Shown: one piece after another, positions 6,273-59,101 of the stretch
How positions within the stretch are numbered: the first letter of the stretch is position 1
How the letters are laid out: every line of letters begins with the position of its first letter
Assembly (NCBI GenBank): GCA_963555755.3
Contig: OY820905.2
Coordinates: forward strand, 2,528,001-2,592,000
Source: Nitrospirales bacterium
GTDB lineage: Bacteria > Nitrospirota > Nitrospiria > Nitrospirales > UBA8639
DNA: 64,000 nt
Direction of reading: 5' to 3'
Notes under the pieces: generated by a model
Databases searched by the model: none
Seen by the model: the letters and a program-made list of their open reading frames with translations, nothing else
Told to the model about the DNA's origin: nothing
Position numbers and translations under genes: made by a program

Positions 6273-6584
6273 TCAATTCCAATTGAATACATCAATTTTG
6301 GTGTCCTCTTCTTGCTCAGGGTGAATAAACTTAAACCCGTCGGGCTCCTGGTAATCCAGGGTAATTCCTTGCATGCGTGGGGCGCTCCGCCCTTCAACCG
6401 CCACAATCAATCCTTTCACCTCCTGCACCTCGTCATCGGGCTGAACCTTATCTTCAAGGGTAATGTTGAACGACAATCGGGCCTCATCGAGGTCCCGCAC
6501 CTTCAATCGGACAATGGGGTCTTCCGGGTGTTCGCGGATTAAAACCTTGAGTTTTGTTACAGCATGTTCCGTAAGAAAAATCAT
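6273..6584 (-). CDS. HesB/IscA-fold protein lacking the Fe-S ligand cysteines
   Basis: MIFLTEHAVTKLK..VRLKV..DDEVQEVKGLIVAV..GITLDY..GFKFIHP pattern of the Fe-S_biosyn fold; no Cys. Confidence 0.7.
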   Translation of the reverse strand: MIFLTEHAVTKLKVLIREHPEDPIVRLKVRDLDEARLSFNITLEDKVQPDDEVQEVKGLIVAVEGRSAPRMQGITLDYQEPDGFKFIHPEQEEDTKIDVFNWN

Positions 6585-6899
6585 ACCTACCCTTCCTTTC
6601 ATCGAGGGTTCCAAATTGGAGTTCCCAGGTACTTATTCTCAATCATGGCGACCTTCATGCCAAGGTTCAACCTGCATTCTTGTAGCCTCTAACAGTTCTT
6701 CCCCCAGACCCTAAATTTTCCACAATCCAATGAAAAACGGTTACAGGATCAACTGTTCCAGCGTCAGGCATGAGTATGCTTTATTCAATAAGGACTGCCA
6801 AAATTTGTTTTTCCAAATATTGAGGGGGAAGGGGCTACCACAGAGTGACTCCTTTTTCCTTCTGAATAAATAAATCAATACTCATGCCTGACCCCCCTT

Positions 6900-7320
6900 G
6901 ATAATTGCGACACGAAATCCCATACAGCACACGTTTGAGGAGAACGTCATCCAAGGCCCCGTGCGCCCGCAAGGGGGGGAGCACGGTTAACGGAATTTCG
7001 GTCTCCCCATCGGGTTGGCGCACCCGCGGAATCCGGAGCGGCACTTGTTGGCCGGCGAGTCGGACACTGCCGGGATTACTCCCATGCCGCCGCCCGGGAA
7101 GCGGCGAGGCTTTCCGGGCATAGCGGGGCCCGGCTACCGTACAGACCTCTGCTTCCAAGAGGGCCTGAACATGGAGGAGGCCCAAGGGGCTGAGGGCCCG
7201 AATACATTCGACTTTCGTCTCCACATCAAACGCCTCATACTGGTCGGGTCGGAGGACCTGGGCCGGCCCCAACCGTTTGGTCTTCTTGCTTCGCTTCGTG
7301 GTTTGCGCACTACTCTTCAT
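6900..7320 (-). pseudogene. IS256-family transposase, N-terminal fragment
   Basis: LLEAEVCTVAGPRY..RRHGSNPGSVRLAGQQVPLRIPRVR..LYGISCRNY, then truncated. Confidence 0.8.
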
Positions 7321-7351
7321 GAAGTGGCTCCTTTCGGCTGCTGGAAAAGAT

Positions 7352-9127
7352 GGGATCAATCGCAATTTTGGTGGAGCCAGGGTACCATCCTTCATGTTCT
7401 TAGCCGTAGATCTTCGCGAGGCGGTAGAGGAAAAAGGGCACCCCTCGGACACCTCGCTGCAGCGCACGGAAATTCTTACTCTTTGCATTACACGATTCAG
7501 CGCTGGCAGTGGTCCGCCGGCCATCAAAGGAGTGCAAGATGGTTGTCTCATGGAGTTTGATCCTCTGCATCGGCGTCTCGCAGGCCGGCAGGATCTCAAT
7601 GGAGGTGTCTAGTTTGGGATCATGCAGAATTTAGGGTTCTGGCAGGACAATACGATCAGGTGCACATAAATTTATGGCACTCCTCGTGGGTTATGTCGCC
7701 TCTCCTTTTGAGCGAATGGCGTCGTCTTGTATTTTTAGGTCGCTGCAGCATCTCATGCTGCCTCTTCCTGGCGTCATAGCCCCTTGGTCCGTGGGAAGAG
7801 GGCACGAGAAGATGGTGCAGCGACACAAGCAAGAAAGCTCACAGGAAGCAACGCCATGGCCAAGAAACTCCATGGGGCCAGAATTGGATGGCGGTAGGAT
7901 AGAACCATAGATTCTGTATGCTCCCTAGTTTGTTGTCCCACTCCTGCAACTTCTCGTGGGCATGGCCTTGCGTCTCACAGTATTCGTAGCTTCCCCGGAA
8001 CATCATGGAGCGGTTGTAGGCTTGCTGTCGCACGGGATACTCGCGGAAGAGCATGGCGCCCCGTTCCTGCTGTGAGGCGGTCCATGTGCTCCTCGCCTTG
8101 ACCCGCAGGTCGCGACTGCTTGCCAGTACCGCCTTGTGGGTATCCCCATTCTCGTAGCGGGGGGCCTGGGAGTGGCTCCCACGTTCCCGAGCCGCTTTGA
8201 CCTGGGCGTTGTCGTCCGTGATCGCCTCCTTGCGCAAGGCCACACGGACTTCCTGGAACGCTTCAGAAACGCGTTGCTGGACCTGGACGCGGTCCTCGAT
8301 CTGCTGCGCATTCGGGAAGCAGACCGTTGCAAGCTGTGCCATACTCGCGTCGAGATCGCGGGTGACGGGCTGGCCCGTCTCTCGTATGGATTCAGGGATC
8401 CGGCGCAAGCCCTCGCTGACGACCTCGGTCTTGGGGCCCTTGACGATGGCAACCAGCGCGCCGTGCTTGCCGTGGCGCGCGTTGTTCGTGAGGACGGTGT
8501 AGCGCTCGCCTTGGCTGCTTGCCACTGCAGCAAGGCGCACGTGCCTCCCCACGTTCTCCGGAAACACGAGCCATGCGGCGGCATGCGTGCGCGCCTCCCA
8601 CGTGGGGACGTCGCTGCGAGGCTCGCGGTAGTGCCGCACAACCCCCGTGGCATCCAGGAAATGAGCCTCGGCAATCGTGGCCCAGGCCCGCGGCTTGTGG
8701 GCAGCCGCGTGCTTTTACAAAAGCCGCACATTCCGTCGCCAGTTGTGTCCCGGGGGCCGGAAGAGCCATGGCGCGCGTCAGAAGCGAGGGCTCGCCCTCC
8801 CCACCTGCCAGCGCCGGCGGCGAAACGTGAGGGAACCGGGTCGGCCCCTGGCGGGACAATCGGTGATGGTGCTGTCCTGGAATCCTTTGGACCAGACGCG
8901 TGGGCCTGGCTGCGCATCCGCCAGCGGAGGGTGATTCTTCTCTTCCAGTACCAAGTGGATCGCGTGGGCCGTCTTCGTGCCTCGACTCAGCTCGAAATAC
9001 TCCACGGGGCCGTCGGGTAAGAAGAAGGCCACCATCTGACGTTCATCGGTGGTGTCCATCCGGTCATGCTCCCTCCTTTCTTCCCCTCACCGTTTACCCC
9101 CACTCCACCAAAAGTGCAACTGATCCC
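7352..9127 (-). mobile_element. Degenerate ISL3-family (ISAon1-like) element, interrupted by a MITE
   Basis: TIRs GGATCAATCGCAATTTTGGTGGAG / CTCCACCAAAAGTGCAACTGATCC. Remnant ORFs: 8778-9059 (FLPDG..YFEL..LEEKN) and 7400-8640 (WLVFPENVG, ENGDTHK, C-terminal AESCNAKSKNFR..LAKIYG). Confidence 0.85.
7616..7925. mobile_element. 310-bp MITE inserted in the ISL3 transposase
   Basis: 25-bp imperfect TIR GGGATCATGCAGAATTTAGGGTTCT / GGGAGCATACAGAATCTATGGTTCT; 6-bp target duplication TAGTTT; ISL3 coding sequence resumes on the other side. Confidence 0.8.
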
Positions 9128-12860: not shown

Positions 12861-12964
12861 GTAGAGTAGAGCACTGGTGCTCACCTGGAGCTACTCTCGA
12901 ACGCTTCGACGCACGCGTCTACCACGGACCATAGCAGTCAGGAATTCCCAGCGCCCCCTCATCA

Positions 12965-14960
12965 GTAGGGTCGAGGACTGGCGCGCCAACGGTAGGGTTC
13001 GGTGGCTCCTCCACCCCTTTCGGAATGGGCCTCAGTCCGACTCCCCTGGTCACGGTTCCAGCCCCCGCCACCTCAAACCCGGCGTGCTGATTTCCAGCAC
13101 CGGGCTTTCCTGGATGCTTCACCTCAAGGGTTATGTGACCTATCGGTCTGGAAGTGCTTTCATGCCGACCCGCTGTACCGCACTCGGTAATCTCCATATA
13201 AGCCGAGTACCGTGTAGAGCCAAACCTTACTCCACCTCTTCCAGCCAAAACCTCGACGGTGGCGCACTCGCATCATGTGCCGCCGGACCTTCCGCTCCAC
13301 CCAATCCTTCACGTAGGATAAACACCGACTCGCATGCCCAATCCGAAAGTCGTTCACCCAGCCCCGTACGATCGGATTGATCATCGCGATCATCCGTCCC
13401 ACCGGCTGGGATTGCCCGCGTCGGAACACCTCCTTGAGCTTCCGCAGCAACGCGGTGCGCCGCTTCACCTTCGGTATGTACTGCGGGCGCCACACCCCAC
13501 GTCGCGACCGCACACGCCGGAAGTCAAAGCCCAAGAACCCGAAGCTCCCTCCCTGACTCAGGTCCACGATCCGGCTCTTCTCCTCATTCACCTGAAGGGC
13601 TCATTGGGCCAACGCCTCTCGCCGCTTCCGCTCCGCGACCTGCGCCAGTTGTGCGTGGCGGCGATAGCCATCCACTAACACGACGAGGTCATCCGCAAAC
13701 CGGGCATACTCGAGATACGTATACTGGCCCTGCCGGGTTGTCTCCTTCAGCTGCTCCAGCATCTCATCCACTTCCGTGAGATAGAGGTTGGCCAGCAGCG
13801 GGGAAATCACACCCCCTTGAGGCACCCCACGCGGGCCGGACGCCTTGACGATGAGTTTCACCAGCCGCAGGATCGCGGGATCCTGGATGCGTCGGGCCAC
13901 CTTCGCCAGCAGCCGGTCATGCCGCACCGTGTCGAAGAAGGCCGCCAGATCCACATCAATCACTCGCGTCTTGTTCTGCACCATCGCCTGAGCCACCCGG
14001 CCAATCGCCTGATGGGCTGTTCGTTTCGGTCGATACCCATACGACCCATCACGAAAATCCGCCTCAAAGATCGGTTCCAGCAGGAGCTTGAGCGCTCCCT
14101 GTACCACGCGGTCCCGAATCGCGGGTATCCCTACGACGCGGACTCGTCCACCGCCTTTCGAAATCTCCACGTGCCGGTTCCGCATCGGTCGGTAGGTCTG
14201 CGTGACCAGTTCGTCCCGTAGTCGTGCAAGAAAGGGCTCCACCCCCGTGGCCTCGATGACCGCAAACGTCACCCCATCAATGCCGGGGGCTCCGTTGTTC
14301 TTCTTCGCCATCGCATAGGCCGCGCGTAGCGTCGCCTCTTTGCACACGTGGATGTACAGGCCCCACACCCGCCATCGCTTCTCAGCCTTCGCCTTGACGT
14401 ACAGCCGCTGTCGCAGGTCTTGCAGTGAAATGGACGCCGTTGTCATCTCGTCCCTGCCTCCCATGTTGATCGCAGCCTACAGCCAGTAGGGCTCCTTTGC
14501 TCCACAGGCATTACCCTGTTTCCTCGCTCCTACGAGCCCCTCCGCCACCCTCTCGTCTTCGGCTCACTTCCCAGAGAGCTGGTTATAGAGCCGAAATCTT
14601 CCTCCAGGGATTTCTCCCTGGGACGAGGAGGGCTTCTCCAGTTGCGTCGTCTGTCCTTGCTCCCGTGCTGTCGCTCTCACCCCGCCGGAGTGGCCAGGCG
14701 TCTCAGCCTTGGTTCGCCTGTCCATGCCGTCTTCGTCCTACGGTCAGGGACTCGACCTCCGAGGTTTCATATTTTCGAGGCTACCACTGCGTTCACTTTC
14801 GTTACGGCCCGGGAACTCGCTTACCATCCCCGACGATGGCTTTGTCGATGGGCTTCAGCGTCTCGGTTTCTCTCCACGCTGCCATCCAAGCTACAGGGCT
14901 CAGGCTCTTACCCTGGTGGGCTTGCTTCCCACTGAACAGTCTCGCCTTACCTGGACACAC
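12965..14960 (-). mobile_element. Inner group II intron, copy 1
   Basis: 5' GTGTG; DV GAAAGCCCGGTGCTGGAAATCAGCACGCCGGGTTTGAGG; 3' end CGACCCTAC. Confidence 0.85.
13160..14476 (-). pseudogene. ltrA: Group II intron RT/maturase with an in-frame TGA at 13601-13603
   Basis: ORFs 13601-14464 and 13160-13591 are in the same frame; TTA in copy 2 corresponds to TGA here; PQGGVISP and YARFADD motifs. Confidence 0.9.
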
Positions 14961-15663
14961 AACCGTGCGTATGGTTTTCCCATACACGGCTTTCCGATGT
15001 TCTTCTTCCAGCGGCATGCGTCTGTCATCAGGCAATAGCCAAATTCAGACTTGGCCTTCTGAGATAGTTTCCTCTGTAGTGTCCTGATCGTGCTCGGGGT
15101 GGTTAGCGCAATGGCAATCCCCTGATCCTCCACTCGTCGGAAACGTGAACAAAGTAGGGTCCCTTCCCTCGGGCCGGGTTGTGTTGTCCCAGGCTCTCCA
15201 ACGGTACGATGAACCCCTCCGACTCCCACGACGGCCCGCAGCGATTTCGGTATCCCTTATACGCCTCAGTTGCTGGTTCTGCGCCAGCACCGTCGCGGGT
15301 CTCCCGTCCTGCACGGTGTCTCTTCCGCCACATGCCATCCCTGCTACCCCGGAAGATCCTGAGGGTGGGTGTTCGTTCTGCTCCCTCAGACAGCGGCCTT
15401 CCCCTTCTGACCACAGGGTCGGCATCTCCAATTCGTTTACGAGGCTACATCTAGGTTCGCTTGCGCTACGGCCTGCGGCTTCGCCCATGGGAAACTTCAA
15501 CCCCTGATTACTCAGACGCCGCTTCCCGGTACTAGAAAGGTGTACGAACAACTCCTTTCGCGGGACTTCAACCCGCGAGACACACCGCCGATGACGGCAT
15601 GCGGTCAGACCCGGTTTTTTTGGGAAACTCGGCTAGGAAGGTTTTCTAATCGGTGAAAAAATA

Positions 15664-53181: not shown

Positions 53182-54647
53182 AAAGGAATATCAACCCGAA
53201 ACGGCGTTTCGGGTTTGGGGTGCGGATCCATGACCCAAAACCCCTGGTTTCCTGGTTGGTGTAATCTGTTTGTTAATTGATCCTGACTCCTTTCCTCTCC
53301 AAGCCATGTTCCTAATTCCGATATCGGAGTGGATGACAACAGTATTGTTACAGACGAGACTGCGGGCTTTCCGAATTTATTCGTTAATTGATTTAATGGA
53401 AAAGTCACAGGTTGATAGGCCTTCACGTTGATGGCCCCATCAGAGGACCTTGGGCCTGTTTGAGATTCTGGACTCATCAATTTCCATTTTCCATTTTCCA
53501 AATCTGTCAAAACATACAAATACCCCGTAACATTCGATGTTATTCCAAGTCGAAGATTCGCCCAACTTCCGGAAAAATGTTCAATGTCTATTGCATCATC
53601 TTTGCCGTCTGACGTTCCGTGAACAAAGCTGTATCGAATGCCTCGGGTTGGCAACTCAGAATCATCCGGAACGGCCTCTTGTGTCATCTCCAGATTCAAG
53701 GATTGTTTTTCTAATACCCTCTCCTTTTCAGAAGACATTCCACCAAAAAGCTGGGATGCGCGCCTGTTACCAATGGCTTCCCTTTCACCCTCGGGCTGTC
53801 TGCCTTTTTCGGCAAAAAATAAATCTCTGACACCCGTTGACGACGGAGCATCACTCCGGTGCATTCGATCGGCAAAGGTTTGTGCTTGAGGCAATTGTTG
53901 AAAGCCTTCTTCTCTTTTTTCCATGTTTCCAACAGACGGAGTCATTAAACGGTATTCTTGGGAAAAAGATTGATCCATGGCAGACTCTAGACCCTGAATG
54001 TCTGGCTCTTTAGCTTTGGGCAAATGTTCTTTTTTTACCATTTGCCGAAAGGCTCGTTTAGAAAAACCTGCTACCGGGGCTTCATCCATACGCTCCCTGT
54101 CTTTTGAAGCTTTTGCGATAGCCGGAGGCTCTGTTACGGGAGATTGAGCGGGCATGGAGGCAACCGGAGCCGGTTTACTTTGTGGTTTGTTCTGTCCCTC
54201 GCGGATTGGCGGCTTTCTTGTCTCCATTCTGGATGATTGAGCTATGGTGGCCATCGTGTCTTTGTCCTCAGACAACGAACGTTCGGCTTGGAGTTCTTCC
54301 TGGACCACGGGACCCCAAAGTTCTTCCATTTGCCACCCAAAAATGAGAGCGAGGCCCATCGCGGCGATGCTTCCGGCCCAAGCGAGAGAAGATGGTTGCC
54401 GGAACCAGCGAAGCTGCGGGCTATGAATGGCGGCCATCCCCTGCGGATTCCCTGATGCCTGTAGACTATCCAGGATTCGTTGACGTGCTTCCGGGTTGGC
54501 CAGCAGGGCTCTCAAAGCCTCTTCATCAGCCAACACATCAAACAAGGTTTGATCATTAAGGGCTGCCGCAAATAATTGGCGCTTTTCCTCTTCGGTGAGC
54601 GTATTCGTGGCATAGCCGCCAAGGATCTGTTCCCAGGACTTGGACAT
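53163..54647 (-). CDS. Putative transmembrane anti-sigma factor
   Basis: N-terminal LGGYATNTLTEEEKRQLF..LFDVL; single TM; coupled to the ECF gene. Confidence 0.65.
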   Translation of the reverse strand: MSKSWEQILGGYATNTLTEEEKRQLFAAALNDQTLFDVLADEEALRALLANPEARQRILDSLQASGNPQGMAAIHSPQLRWFRQPSSLAWAGSIAAMGLALIFGWQMEELWGPVVQEELQAERSLSEDKDTMATIAQSSRMETRKPPIREGQNKPQSKPAPVASMPAQSPVTEPPAIAKASKDRERMDEAPVAGFSKRAFRQMVKKEHLPKAKEPDIQGLESAMDQSFSQEYRLMTPSVGNMEKREEGFQQLPQAQTFADRMHRSDAPSSTGVRDLFFAEKGRQPEGEREAIGNRRASQLFGGMSSEKERVLEKQSLNLEMTQEAVPDDSELPTRGIRYSFVHGTSDGKDDAIDIEHFSGSWANLRLGITSNVTGYLYVLTDLENGKWKLMSPESQTGPRSSDGAINVKAYQPVTFPLNQLTNKFGKPAVSSVTILLSSTPISELGTWLGEERSQDQLTNRLHQPGNQGFWVMDPHPKPETPFRVDIPLGLAQE

Positions 54648-55204
54648 CAGCCTACTGTCTCCTTATTGGGTACCGAACCCTTCCCTTTCAGCGGAAGTGT
54701 CTCCCATACTCCACCCATTAAAATTAGGAGTTGTTTGCGACACCGCGAATCCCACGTATAAATCGTATTAATTGAGCGTTCGCCCAGAATCTTTTGGATT
54801 TCTGGAAAGGTATGGCCTTCCAGTTTCAGACGAAATAGGTTTTGGCATCGCTCACCTAATTGCTGTATTGCAGCAATCAGGTGTGTCACCCGCTCATTCT
54901 GCTCGGCTTGCATAGCTGGGTCATCTCCTGGATCGACAAGCATGTGATCATCCACTGACTCCTGGTTGTATTCCCCATGCCGAAGGGTTTTGCGGTGACG
55001 GTCCAGCATTTTATACCGAAGGATTTGAAAGGACAGGGGAACGAGTTCAGTCAATTCCGTCACGTGTGGATATTTTTCATGCAAGACCATCAGGACATCC
55101 TGGGTTAAATCTTCGGCCCCTTCCCTTACACCACGAGATGTCGCAAAAGCCAAAATCCTTTCACGGAGCCGGCACAGGATTTCCTCACGAGTCAGTGCTC
55201 CCAT
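54647..55204 (-). CDS. ECF-family RNA polymerase sigma factor
   Basis: AEDLTQDV (region 2); AIQQLGERCQNLFRL..G.TFPEI..SINTIYT..RCRK.L (region 4). Confidence 0.88.
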   Translation of the reverse strand: MGALTREEILCRLRERILAFATSRGVREGAEDLTQDVLMVLHEKYPHVTELTELVPLSFQILRYKMLDRHRKTLRHGEYNQESVDDHMLVDPGDDPAMQAEQNERVTHLIAAIQQLGERCQNLFRLKLEGHTFPEIQKILGERSINTIYTWDSRCRKQLLILMGGVWETLPLKGKGSVPNKETVG

Positions 55205-55335: not shown

Positions 55336-58083
55336 GTAGAGTAGAGCACTGGTGCATACATGGAGCTGCTCTCGAACGCTTCGACGCACGCGTCTACCAC
55401 GGACCATAGCAGTCAGCACTTCCCAGCGCCCCCTCATCAGTAGGGTCGAGGACTGGCGCGCCAACGGTAGGGTTCGGTGGCTCCTCCACCCCTTTCGGAA
55501 TGGGCCTCAGTCCGACTCCCCTGGTCACGGTTCCAGTCCCCGCCACCTCAAACCCGGCGTGCTGATTTCCAGCACCGGGCTTTCCTGGATGCTTCACCTC
55601 AAGGGTTATGTGACCTATCAGCCTGGAAGGACTTTCATGCCGACCCGTTGTACCGCACTCGGTAATCTCCATATAAGCCAAGTACCGTGTAGAGCCAAAC
55701 CTTACTCCACCTCTTCCAGCCAAAACCTCGACGGTGGCGCACTCGCATCATGTGCCGCCGGACCTTCCGCTCCACCCAATCCTTCACGTAGGATAAACAC
55801 CGACTCGCATGCCCAATCCGGAAGTAGTTCACCCAGCCCCGTACGATCGGATTGATCATGGCGATCATCCGTCCCACCGGCTGGGATTGCCCGCGTCGGA
55901 ACACTTCCTTGAGCTTCCGCAGCAACGCGGTGCGCCGCTTCACCTTCGGTATGTACTGCGGGCGCCACACTCCACGCCGCGACCGCACACGCCGAAAGTC
56001 AAAGCCCAGAAAGCCGAAGCTGCCTCCCTGACTCAGGTCCACGATTCGGCTCTTCTCCTCATTCACCTGAAGGTCTAATTGGGCCAACGCCTCTCGCAGC
56101 TTCCGCTCCGCAACCTGCGCCAGTTGTGCGTGGCGGCGATAGCCATCCACTAACACGACGAGGTCATCCGCAAACCGGACATACTCGAGATACGTATACT
56201 GGCCCTGCCGGGTTGTCTCCTTCAGCTGCTCCAGCCTCTCATCCACTTCCGTGAGATAGAGGTTGGCCAGCAGCGGGGAAATCACACCCCCTTGAGGCAC
56301 CCCACGCGGGCCGGACGCCTTGACGATGAGTTTCACCAGCCGCAGGATCGCGGGATCCTGGATGCGTCGGGCCACCTTCGCCAGCAGCCGGTCATGCCGC
56401 ACCGTGTCGAAGAAGGCCGCCAGATCCACATCAATCACTCGCGTCTTGTTCTGCACCATCGCCTGAGCCACCCGGCCAATCGCCTGGTGGGCTGTCCGTT
56501 TCGGTCGATACCCATACGACCCATCACGAAAATCCGCCTCAAAGATCGGTTCCAGCAGGAGCTTGAGCGCTCCCTGTACCACGCGGTCCCGAATCGCGGG
56601 TATCCCTAAGACGCGGACTCGTCCACCGCCTTTCGAAATCTCCACGTGCCGGTTCCGCATCGGTCGGTAGGTCTGCGTGACCAGTTCGTCCCGTAGTCGT
56701 GCAAGAAAGGGCTCCACCCCCGTGGCCTCGATGCCAGCAAACGTCACCCCATCAATGCCGGGGGCTCCGTTGTTTTTCTTGGCCATCGAATAGGCCGCGC
56801 GTAGCGTCGCCTCTTTGCACACGTGGACGTACAGGCCCCACACCCGCCATCGCTTCTCAGCCTTCGCCTTGACGTAGAGCCGCTGTCGCAGGTCTTGCAG
56901 TGTAATGGACGCCGTTGTCATCTCGTCCCTGCCTCCCATGTTGATCACAGCCTACAGCCAGTAGGGCTCCTTTGCTCCACAGGCATGACCCTGCTTCCTC
57001 GCTCCTACGAGCCCCTCCGCCACCCTCTCGTCTTCGGCTCACTTCCCAGAGAGCTGGTTATAGAGCCGATCTTCCTCCAGGGATTTCTCCCTGGGACGAG
57101 GAGGGCTTCTCCAGTTGCGTCGTCTGTCCTTGCTCCCGTGCTGTCGCTCTCACCCCGCCGGAGTGGCCAGGCGTCTCAGCCTTGGTTCGCCTGTCCATGC
57201 CGTCTTCGTCCTACGGACAGGGACTCGACCTCCGAGGTTTCATACTTTCGAGGCTACCTCTGCGTTCACTTGCGTTACGGCCCGGGAACTCGCTCACCAT
57301 CCTCTACGATGGCTTTGTCGATGGGCTTCAGCGTCTCGGTTTCTCTCCACGCTGCCATCCAAGCTACAGGGCTCAGGCTCTTACCCTGGTGGGCTTGCTT
57401 CCCACTGAACAGTCTCGCCTTACCTGGACACACATCCGTGCGTATGGTTTTCCCATACACGGCTTTCCGATGTTCTTCTTCCAGCGGCATGCGTCTGTCA
57501 TCAAGCAATAGCCAAATTCAGACTTGGCCTTCTGAGATAGTTTCCTCTGTAGTGTCCTGATCGTGCTCGGGGTGGTTAGCGCAATGGCAATCCCCTGATC
57601 CTCCACTCGTCGGAAACGTGAACAAAGTAGGGTCCCTTCCCTCGGGCCGGGTTGTGTTGTCCCAGGCTCTCCAACGGTACTATGAACCCCTCCGACTCCC
57701 ACGACGGCCCGCAGCGATTTCGGTATCCCTTATACGCCTCAGTTGCTGGTTCTGCGCCAGCACCGTCGCGGGTCTCCCGTCCTGCACGGTGTCTCTTCCG
57801 CCACATGCCATCCCTGCTACCCCGGAAGATCCTGAGGGTGGGTGTTCGTTCTGCTCCCTCAAACGGCGGCCTTCCCCTTCTGACCACAGGGTCGGCATCT
57901 CCAATTCGTTTACGAGGCTACATCTAGGTTCGCTTGCGCTACGGCCTGCGGCTTTGCCCATGGGAAACTTCAACCCCTGATTACTCAGACGCTGCTTCCC
58001 GGTACTAGAAAGGTGTACGAACAACTCCTTTCGCGGGACTTCAACCCGCTAGACACACCGCCGATGACGGCATGCGGTCAGAC
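55336..58083 (-). mobile_element. Group II twintron copy 2: ORF-less outer intron containing the inner intron 55440-57433
   Basis: Near-identical to 12861-15610 with different flanks; same split domain V. Confidence 0.88.
55635..56948 (-). CDS. ltrA: Group II intron reverse transcriptase/maturase (no endonuclease domain), intact
   Basis: GAPGIDG, LGIPAIRDRVVQ, SYGYRP, DVDLAAFFD, PQGGVISPLLANLYL, YVRFADD, FLGFDF, INPIVRGWVNYF. Confidence 0.95.
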   Translation of the reverse strand: MINMGGRDEMTTASITLQDLRQRLYVKAKAEKRWRVWGLYVHVCKEATLRAAYSMAKKNNGAPGIDGVTFAGIEATGVEPFLARLRDELVTQTYRPMRNRHVEISKGGGRVRVLGIPAIRDRVVQGALKLLLEPIFEADFRDGSYGYRPKRTAHQAIGRVAQAMVQNKTRVIDVDLAAFFDTVRHDRLLAKVARRIQDPAILRLVKLIVKASGPRGVPQGGVISPLLANLYLTEVDERLEQLKETTRQGQYTYLEYVRFADDLVVLVDGYRRHAQLAQVAERKLREALAQLDLQVNEEKSRIVDLSQGGSFGFLGFDFRRVRSRRGVWRPQYIPKVKRRTALLRKLKEVFRRGQSQPVGRMIAMINPIVRGWVNYFRIGHASRCLSYVKDWVERKVRRHMMRVRHRRGFGWKRWSKVWLYTVLGLYGDYRVRYNGSA

Positions 58084-58159: not shown

Positions 58160-59101
58160 TTAAGCCTGGCCGGTCCTGCTAGATTGTCGTGCCAGATTGA
58201 CTAACACCCCTTCCCGTAGTCCGTATTCGCTGACGAGGCATTGATCCTGCCGGAGTTCTTCCATGATGCAACGGAGAATGAGTGTGCCGGCGGCAATGAC
58301 TTCTTCGCGGCCAGGCTCTAACCCGGGGATGCTAGTGCGTTCTGATTTTTTTCGAGGGAAAATGGTTTGCTCGATGATTTTCACCGTTTCGAGTGTCAGG
58401 GTGTAATTATGTATGCGCTCGGGAACATATGTTGTGAGCCCTTGGGCGATGGCCGCCAGGGACGTGATGGTCCCGGCGGTTCCGACGAAGGTCAGGCCAG
58501 ATATGTCGCCTAGGGTGGTTAGAGCTCGTTGGGTTGAGGAATGGATGAGTTGTTCGGCTTCTTGAATTTCAGATGCTGATGGCGGATCACTTTTTAATAC
58601 ACGCTCTGATAATCGGACCACGCCAATGTCAATCGAGATGGCTTTCGGAGGTTGCCCCTCGCGACTGACGATAAATTCCGTGCTGCCGCCACCAATATCC
58701 AGGCCCAACATGTCATGAATTTGGTCCAGGAACCCTGAGCGAAGACCTAGAAGCGTTCGTCGCGCCTCCTCTTCTCCATCAATGACTTCAACTTCCACCC
58801 CGGCTTCCTGTTTGACTCGTTGGAGGAATTCCTCACGATTGCAAGCTTCTCGCACGGCGCTCGTGGCCACGGCAATGGAGGCTTGGACACCATGTTGATC
58901 AATCACTCCTTGCCACTCTCTTATCGCTTCGATGACCCGAGTCATGGCTTCGGGTTTGAGTTGCTTGGTTTGATCGACGCCTTCACCCAATCGTAAAATC
59001 TTCCTGCCGGAGTACACTGTTTTTACTGGGCCGTGACCGTCCACTTCCCCGATGAGCAGACGACACGTGAGGGTGCCGATGTCGATGCATGCTACTCGCA
59101 T
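58160..59101 (-). CDS. ppx: Ppx/GppA exopolyphosphatase
   Basis: IDIGT..RLGEG..ATSAVREA..EEEA..DIGGGSTE..GLREG. Confidence 0.93.
   Translation of the reverse strand: MRVACIDIGTLTCRLLIGEVDGHGPVKTVYSGRKILRLGEGVDQTKQLKPEAMTRVIEAIREWQGVIDQHGVQASIAVATSAVREACNREEFLQRVKQEAGVEVEVIDGEEEARRTLLGLRSGFLDQIHDMLGLDIGGGSTEFIVSREGQPPKAISIDIGVVRLSERVLKSDPPSASEIQEAEQLIHSSTQRALTTLGDISGLTFVGTAGTITSLAAIAQGLTTYVPERIHNYTLTLETVKIIEQTIFPRKKSERTSIPGLEPGREEVIAAGTLILRCIMEELRQDQCLVSEYGLREGVLVNLARQSSRTGQA

Follow-up and report, generated by a model that had tools for sequence, protein, structure and literature searches.

A reverse transcriptase-encoding group IIB intron lodged in domain V of an ORF-less group II intron, and its likely homing to that domain

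We analyzed a 64,000-nt stretch of a Nitrospirales bacterium genome (assembly GCA_963555755.3, contig OY820905.2, positions 2,528,001 to 2,592,000; hereafter "the window"), in which a twintron, i.e., one intron lying precisely inside another, occupies positions 55336–58075 of the minus strand. An inner group IIB intron encoding a reverse transcriptase (RT) splits domain V (DV) of an outer group IIB intron that lacks an open reading frame (ORF), and its sequence identifies a real twintron, apparently made by a DV-homing variant of the group II introns without an endonuclease (En) domain. Because its predicted exon-binding sites EBS1 and EBS2 complement the DV 3′ strand, the inner intron probably moves by retrohoming into the DV of further group II introns, and a host would recover a working DV joined to domain VI (DVI) only once the inner intron had spliced out. 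The anatomy, the guide pairing and its covariation, the reuse of the site in unrelated hosts and the mismatch of these guides to the intron's own DV are all read directly from the DNA.

Anatomy of the twintron

The inner intron (55440–57433, 1994 nt; all coordinates are those of the window, minus strand) runs from GUGUG to AC (GTGTG...CCCTAC in DNA). Its extent and its possession of an own DV, DVI and RT, as described in a first-pass annotation of this DNA, were borne out by comparison of copies and by TIGR04416 and Rfam matches. Specifically, it carries a D1-D4-4 match of 112 bits, while its DV/DVI reaches 36.7 bits on Intron_gpII (E 6.5e-5), just under the gathering score of 40, a cut-off that a variant copy of the same intron passes. 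DV, whose 3′ strand ends in CGGGTT, was placed at 55550–55582 from that match and a scripted fold, and DVI at 55440–55549 from the fold, with a candidate bulged A at 55446. The inner intron shows the features of a mobile group II intron, with GUGYG...AY ends, domain I (DI), DV and DVI with a bulged A. The RT/maturase ORF (55635–56948) spans 437 aa from a GTG, has its likely start at ATG 56921 and contains an FADD motif. The frame is intact, with 356.8 bits on TIGR04416 against a cut-off of 300, and the domain search detected RVT_1 and GIIM only, giving no En domain. An open RT frame is kept in 11 of the 13 full-length inner copies of this genome, all 11 with the EBS1 sequence GUCCGU.

Host DV is split at ...GCACGGAT|TGATGAGGGG, one base before its 3′ end, leaving 32 of 33 DV nucleotides upstream. 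Since the insertion falls at the last base pair, DV is parted from DVI and the catalytic triad is not cut; the earlier statement that DV is interrupted exactly thus holds for the precision of the junction and less so for its place in the hairpin. In the host DV 3′ strand lie the intron-binding sites IBS1 (ACGGAT, 57434–57439), pairing 6/6 with EBS1 (GUCCGU, 57213–57218), and IBS2 (CATAC, 57442–57446), pairing 5/5 with EBS2 (GUAUG, 57241–57245), as expected of the DV homing that had been suggested at first pass. A candidate EBS3, the G at 57207, was assigned by position. The inner intron's own DV pairs at just 3/6 positions with its own EBS1. Host DVs with an A opposite the triad G (ACGGAT) or with ACGGAA ends recur (window 57465–57434, L046, L071, L074, L032 and L055), and one such DV belongs to an intron that is uninterrupted and keeps its RT frame open.

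The outer intron comprises a 642-nt 5′ part (57434–58075; DI to domain IV (DIV), an ORF stub and most of DV, starting with GCAUG) and a 3′ part (55336–55439; the last DV base and DVI, with a candidate bulged A at 55342 and an AC end). The first 32 nt of its DV (57434–57465) show an AGC triad, G opposite A and a GAAA loop, the last base being 55439. When the inner intron is excised by script, the flanks rejoin into a 746-nt intron, complete from DI to DVI with the ORF deleted and showing a normal fold of DV and DVI. Among natural copies without an insertion, the Intron_gpII cut-off is passed by a full-length sibling in this genome (L103, 42.8 bits) and by an empty ORF-less outer copy in genome G159 (L113, 44.7 bits).

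The outer DI has a D1D4-6 match of 64.3 bits (58042–57810), and its 5′ end is fixed at 58075 by copy comparison and EBS1 pairing. All 17 outer 5′ ends in this genome lie directly after YTGACC, upstream of which sequences diverge, and EBS1, readable in 15 of these copies, is GGUCAG in every one, the complement of YTGACC; in the window, EBS1 (57880–57885) is complementary to the 5′ exon IBS1 CTGACC (58076–58081), the empty target being YTGACC|CC. One relative, L118, carries the compensatory pair of exon CTGCCC and EBS1 GGGCAG, and another, L121, is an exception that joins CTGCCC to GGUCAG (5/6 pairing). The GTCTG start at 58083 given at first pass was thus off by 8 nt, and a GTGTG lying 17 nt further in was likewise ruled out as the 5′ end by EBS1 pairing and the copies. 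The canonical GUGYG end is absent, and the GCAUG start is common to the full-length siblings. Starts across the family are GCAUG, GUAUG or GUUCG (L113, L118, L096), with a small hairpin and a decoy GUGUG downstream. The target motif YTGACC|CC, as TTTGACCCC, occurs 130 times.

The outer intron is a deletion derivative of a 1972-nt family, to whose full-length members it is 93% identical over the 5′ RNA domains and relative to which it has lost ~1.23 kb. These members retain open RT frames (370.6 bits on TIGR04416 for the sibling), and the outer-family RT is closest, among three references, to Ni.ha.I1 of group g3 (47% identity). The RT stub reported at first pass is indeed there (57514–57579, LTTPST...KAKSEF; LTTPSTIRTLQRKLSQKAK), its start codon lost to ATT where the sibling has ATG, and likely represents a retained RT-binding region, DIVa. 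Seven ORF-less copies occur in this genome, with seven different flanks sharing only YTGACC|CC. Duplication of the whole twintron at the DNA level was ruled out by these flanks, and the copies point to retrohoming with RT supplied in trans. They are near-identical in two groups, and the outer lineage has therefore spread recently. Inner and outer-family RTs are ~40% identical and belong to different groups, and the RT donor would more likely be the full-length sibling family than the inner intron, which makes borrowing of the inner RT, as once suggested, the weaker option.

The twintron is intergenic and co-oriented with its flanking genes, a Ppx/GppA-like gene upstream (58160–59101, below the curated cut-off) and an ECF-type sigma factor gene downstream (54647–55204). 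A promoter and terminator scan gave no signal above chance.

Occupied sites in this genome and in relatives

We identified 16 inner intron pieces in this genome, 14 of them with a 5′ junction. Two of these junctions are head-to-tail self-junctions in a triple array (C1:2160017-2165998), where three inner copies follow one another 6–16 nt apart in one host DV. Among the 12 first-in-site junctions that remain, 11 fall at the same DV position, in seven ORF-less hosts, two full-length siblings, one member of a divergent family B and one intron of unrelated type; two fragments without a 5′ end stop on host DVI. EBS1 pairing at the 12 junctions is 6/6 at 10 and 5/6 at two, and EBS2 pairing is 5/5 at eight, 4/5 at three and 1/5 at C1:1562261 (L105). 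The latter, the sole first-in-site copy outside DV, has a 7-nt match to the EBS1 loop, and we read it as an ectopic event. It lies in sense in what is presumably a formate-tetrahydrofolate-ligase-like (fhs-like) gene, named from a motif, with a stop codon ~30 codons downstream.

Near-identical inner copies (0–2 nt apart) occur at different sites, which suggests recent movement. Furthermore, 16 differences separate the inner introns of two hosts that are identical over 746 nt, and 1–2 nt distinguish the window copy from the inner introns of full-length hosts; this mismatch between host and inner divergence favours separate invasions, gene conversion being the alternative. With replication direction taken from GC skew (origin near 2.71 Mb, terminus near 0.57 Mb), all 16 inner pieces lie in lagging-template orientation, the bias expected of En-less retrohoming according to the available text of PMC4424553. 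A descriptor search found 21 DV-like sites, nine occupied and 12 empty: EBS2 pairing is 5/5 at all nine occupied sites and poorer at 11 of the empty ones, while the twelfth pairs perfectly but in the opposite replication orientation.

The best 80 of at least 597 RT relatives in species genomes were then examined. They yielded 60 5′ junctions, spread over 59 loci; no junction was located in the other 21 loci, and four junctions were too short, leaving 56 scorable. Of these, 27 lie at the exact DV register, compared to a background of 0.8–1.1% at random positions, and they represent 26 loci in ~20 genomes from seven named phyla. At the 24 DV junctions with a readable EBS1, EBS1 pairing is ≥5/6 in 23 and EBS2 pairing ≥4/5 in 20, with 2–3/5 in the other four, and both totals exceed all 20000 target shuffles, a result that kinship inflates. 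The EBS1 of relatives tracks the host DV (UUCCGU/ACGGAA, AUCCGU/ACGGAU, AUCUGG/CCGGGU), and the 3′ exon opens with C or T at each of the 21 DV junctions read. Of 20 loci checked, 11 had a host DI match upstream, at ORF-less spacing in at least seven, and an upstream RT match was present for six of 24 DV junctions, one of them a stub. Inner-type copies sit in DV in 4/4 cases in genome G041, which shares coordinates with G159 and was counted once with it, and of three plasmid relatives opened, two lie in DV and the third does not. Among 24 DV-homing relatives, four had an identifiable DV of their own, pairing at 2–4/6 positions with the own EBS1. Overall, the proposal that the inner intron homes to DV of other introns is supported by the junctions in this genome, those in relatives and the covariation of EBS with host DV. 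Copies independent of DV are confined to one first-in-site junction here and are frequent among relatives, so that DV is the commonest single target of the inner-RT family and not its sole target. Homing to DV as the property of a single clade was not supported by a quick RT tree or by the junctions outside DV; it is widespread and possibly ancestral. Two further loci are of note: at L039:395, the DV occupied by a relative whose EBS1 region is AACGGC ends in GCCGTT, and L026 holds two successive DV insertions, at 1200 and 1999.

Several other elements were observed around these hosts. A third intron with a 425-codon frame (C1:801412-799543 and ~6426-8295) interrupts the outer-family RT ORF at about the YADD motif, and one host therefore bears both ORF-homing and DV-homing introns. 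The family B host DV and that of unrelated type are also split by an insertion sequence (IS). A 1.86-kb IS-like element, with a ~600-aa ORF, weak IS1-type zinc-finger matches, terminal inverted repeats and an ~11-bp duplication, lies in a group II intron DV in 4/4 copies here (C1 near 777k, 1025k, 1252k and 3059k; L104, L106), and among its metagenome relatives (L122–L139), 8 of 17 with a readable end are in or at DV, as judged by eye. This element may prefer GC-rich palindromic 11-mers. At C1:775512, a chimeric DV has the flanks of two intron types on either side of an IS copy, suggesting recombination between IS copies.

Proposed homing mechanism and alternatives

In the mechanism we propose, the En-less ribonucleoprotein (RNP) would reverse-splice into the single-stranded lagging-strand template at DV DNA, guided by EBS1, EBS2 and an EBS3 G able to accept the C or T ending DV. 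Target recognition looks to be mainly base pairing of EBS1 and EBS2 to the conserved DV 3′ strand, and additional determinants of specificity, including a role of the hairpin, may act beside it. Hosts would be invaded after landing, because host RNA can move only once the inner intron is gone; a host would thus move empty and then be re-invaded. Full-length siblings would act in trans to splice the ORF-less host and to move it into YTGACC|CC sites, and changes in EBS would follow variants of host DV. In the precursor RNA, the host DV stem would be a competitor of the inner guides, and host DVI would be shifted 2 kb away, so that accurate host branching would need prior removal of the inner intron; ordered splicing, inner before outer, can soundly be inferred. 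Tandem arrays would likely arise from re-insertion at the 5′ junction, as shown for EcKTE56.groEL in the accessible part of PMC12584367.

A number of observations weigh against this interpretation. The relatives' junctions lie at targets other than DV in 29 of 56 cases, and on the quick RT tree the DV state changes ~10 times (five forced). A divergent own DV is also found in relatives that do not home to DV, and therefore need not be an adaptation. In this genome, 253 empty sites satisfy a loose, wobble-tolerant EBS1 plus EBS2 rule and six a strict one, so that pairing alone does not account for specificity, and the perfectly pairing site C1:775512 is empty in the favoured orientation, though its DV is IS-split. 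Since 15 of 17 hosts are themselves in lagging orientation, the bias of the inner pieces is not independent. The ORF-less hosts are occupied in 7/7 cases here, which also fits composite copying. Finally, in two metatranscriptome contig sets covering the element (two runs, one study), no spliced junction is listed and two RNA contigs bridge the unspliced 3′ junction; contig depth here reflects multi-copy sequence, and contigs can show neither level nor strand and drop rare forms. Contigs of runs X1, X3, X8 and X10 share the last 41 nt of the inner intron (55440–55480) and continue into other sequence, and no extra element matching them was found in this genome (G000).

The many loosely and several strictly pairing sites that stand empty outside DV, together with EBS2 pairing of merely 2–3/5 at four DV junctions, would be expected if homing were directed by structure, i.e., if the RNP or RT sensed the DV hairpin on single-stranded DNA and EBS pairing only set the register, as for class C introns and terminators. 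We consider this unlikely: IBS1 and IBS2 lie within a hairpin strand that must open, and EBS1 and EBS2 both co-vary with host DV. Moreover, non-hairpin sites with the matching hexamer are occupied by the ectopic copy here, by three relatives that carry a DV-type EBS1 (L018–L020) and by L101, and sister introns reach other targets simply via other EBS sequences, with an EBS1 mostly not of DV type matching its own target in 25 of 27 non-DV relatives. Of the early suggestion of homing to the DV hairpin, the site stands and sensing of the hairpin is the less likely mechanism, recognition looking mainly like EBS1/EBS2 pairing. It is rather improbable that DV is merely a harmless conserved landing pad and that insertion disables the host for good. 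The lack of a spliced junction in both contig sets would fit such a dead end, as would the further damage seen here, with an IS in host DVs and another intron in host ORFs as well, but contigs drop rare forms, the ORF-less hosts have spread recently to seven flanks, and the inner intron retains the full EBS-IBS pairing needed for splicing.

That the ORF-less host and the inner intron move jointly as a helper pair, with the inner RT serving both, seems very unlikely to us. The full occupancy of ORF-less hosts in this genome would agree with it, as would C1:2357 and the window copy, whose hosts are identical and whose inner introns are 1 nt apart, and, among relatives, the ORF-less spacing of at least seven of the 11 hosts in which D1-D4 was matched upstream. 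Against it, host and inner distances disagree in one pair (0 vs 16 differences), inner introns also occur in hosts with an RT of their own, and the two RTs belong to different groups. Outer-only copies, for which the first-pass annotation had called, also exist, as full-length siblings with open RT frames in this genome and as the empty ORF-less host in G159, even though all ORF-less hosts here are filled. Homing into DV of separately mobile hosts thus remains our preferred interpretation.

Beyond homing itself, we tentatively entertain, as a possibility we would not favour, that DV, as the one motif that group II introns are not free to alter, is a shared landing pad under an arms race, in which g2-type introns home there, escape their own guides, retune EBS1 and EBS2 with the drift of host DV and gate the splicing of other introns, while the IS1-like family converged on the same hairpin. 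In this genome, the three GACCGU copies, which match the canonical ACGGUU (ACGGTT in DNA, 3/3), are all broken or truncated, and the intact GUCCGU copies match the ACGGAU variant of their hosts. One GACCGU copy belongs to a second twintron in the window (12861–15602, minus strand; inner intron 14960–12965, EBS1 GACCGU, exon ACGGTT), with its RT frame broken at 291 codons.

DV would give selfish introns a near-universal and host-neutral target, as the most conserved RNA element even of ORF-less introns. Insertion into DV would account for outer introns being overlooked in some surveys of bacterial introns, and the available text of PMC8919778 reports that twintron hosts were missed by a survey pipeline; ORF-less introns may likewise be under-counted by DV searches. 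The twintron would also offer a natural and testable example of a ribozyme that gates a second one, and its EBS/IBS pairs would record, base by base, the co-evolution of a parasite with the parasite it lives on.

Relation to known introns and twintrons

The inner RT is 49% identical to that of B.th.I3 of pBMB67, with which it groups in a quick tree (SH-aLRT 100) that sets both apart from a g1 and a g3 reference; the tree includes a single g2 reference and none for g4 or basal F. FADD in RT5 and lack of an En domain define group g2, or class F sensu lato, in the part of PMC3552965 available, and the inner RT shows both. The inner intron thus fits g2/class F sensu lato most closely, on one g2 reference. 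It resembles that group in its FADD motif, an RT-X of ~430–445 aa and a length of ~2.0 kb, and differs in its target: the same portion of PMC3552965 gives no DV target, and the exon of the pBMB67 intron is not DV. Its 6-nt EBS1, co-varying EBS2 and site inside a stem set it apart from class C (IIC), whose members have a short EBS1 and no EBS2 and insert after a hairpin.

Twintrons have been described (PMC4424553, PMC4649490, PMC4476101), as has homing of introns into DIV of other introns (PMC2882425) and into the YADD motif (PMC2504315), each here from the text available. Intron-on-intron homing being already known, DV is a new site and not a new principle. Our literature search found no description of DV as a homing site, within a coverage that is incomplete and makes prior notice quite possible; DV is not mentioned as a target in the available portions of PMC4028801, PMC8919778, PMC7306698, PMC8643678 and PMC3245105.

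Among known systems, as far as the respective texts extend, the Trichodesmium T.e.I7/I8 twintron (PMC4649490) differs in having a single locus, an inner intron in DI, a host in a protein-coding gene and no lineage-wide homing site. The tandem integration of EcKTE56.groEL (PMC12584367) shares head-to-tail copies at one site with our triple array; in that system the first G of the intron is paired by a U at EBS3, an explanation that does not transfer directly to our case, where the candidate EBS3 is G. The Thermosynechococcus TeI3/TeI4 twintrons (PMC2882425) are alike in independent recent insertions at a conserved site of dispersed hosts and in ORF-less introns driven in trans by related intron-encoded proteins. 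Their inner intron is ORF-less, however, and inserts into DIV of close relatives between the first and second ATG, whereas here the RT is in the inner intron, the ORF-less host is of another group and the site is DV. Nested Methanosarcina introns (PMC4424553) likewise home into other retroelements and form twintrons. Also comparable are the YADD-homing M.a.I5, UA.I3, P.l.I2 and B.th.I3 of B. thuringiensis israelensis (PMC2504315), which are En-less and IIB-like, home by IBS pairing to a conserved retroelement motif and form twintrons. The inner intron, with DV as its target, is not a member of that lineage: YADD-homing introns target the coding motif of the RT active site within DIV, while the inner intron targets the catalytic hairpin of the ribozyme, which, unlike the YADD motif, is present also in ORF-less introns and in most classes.

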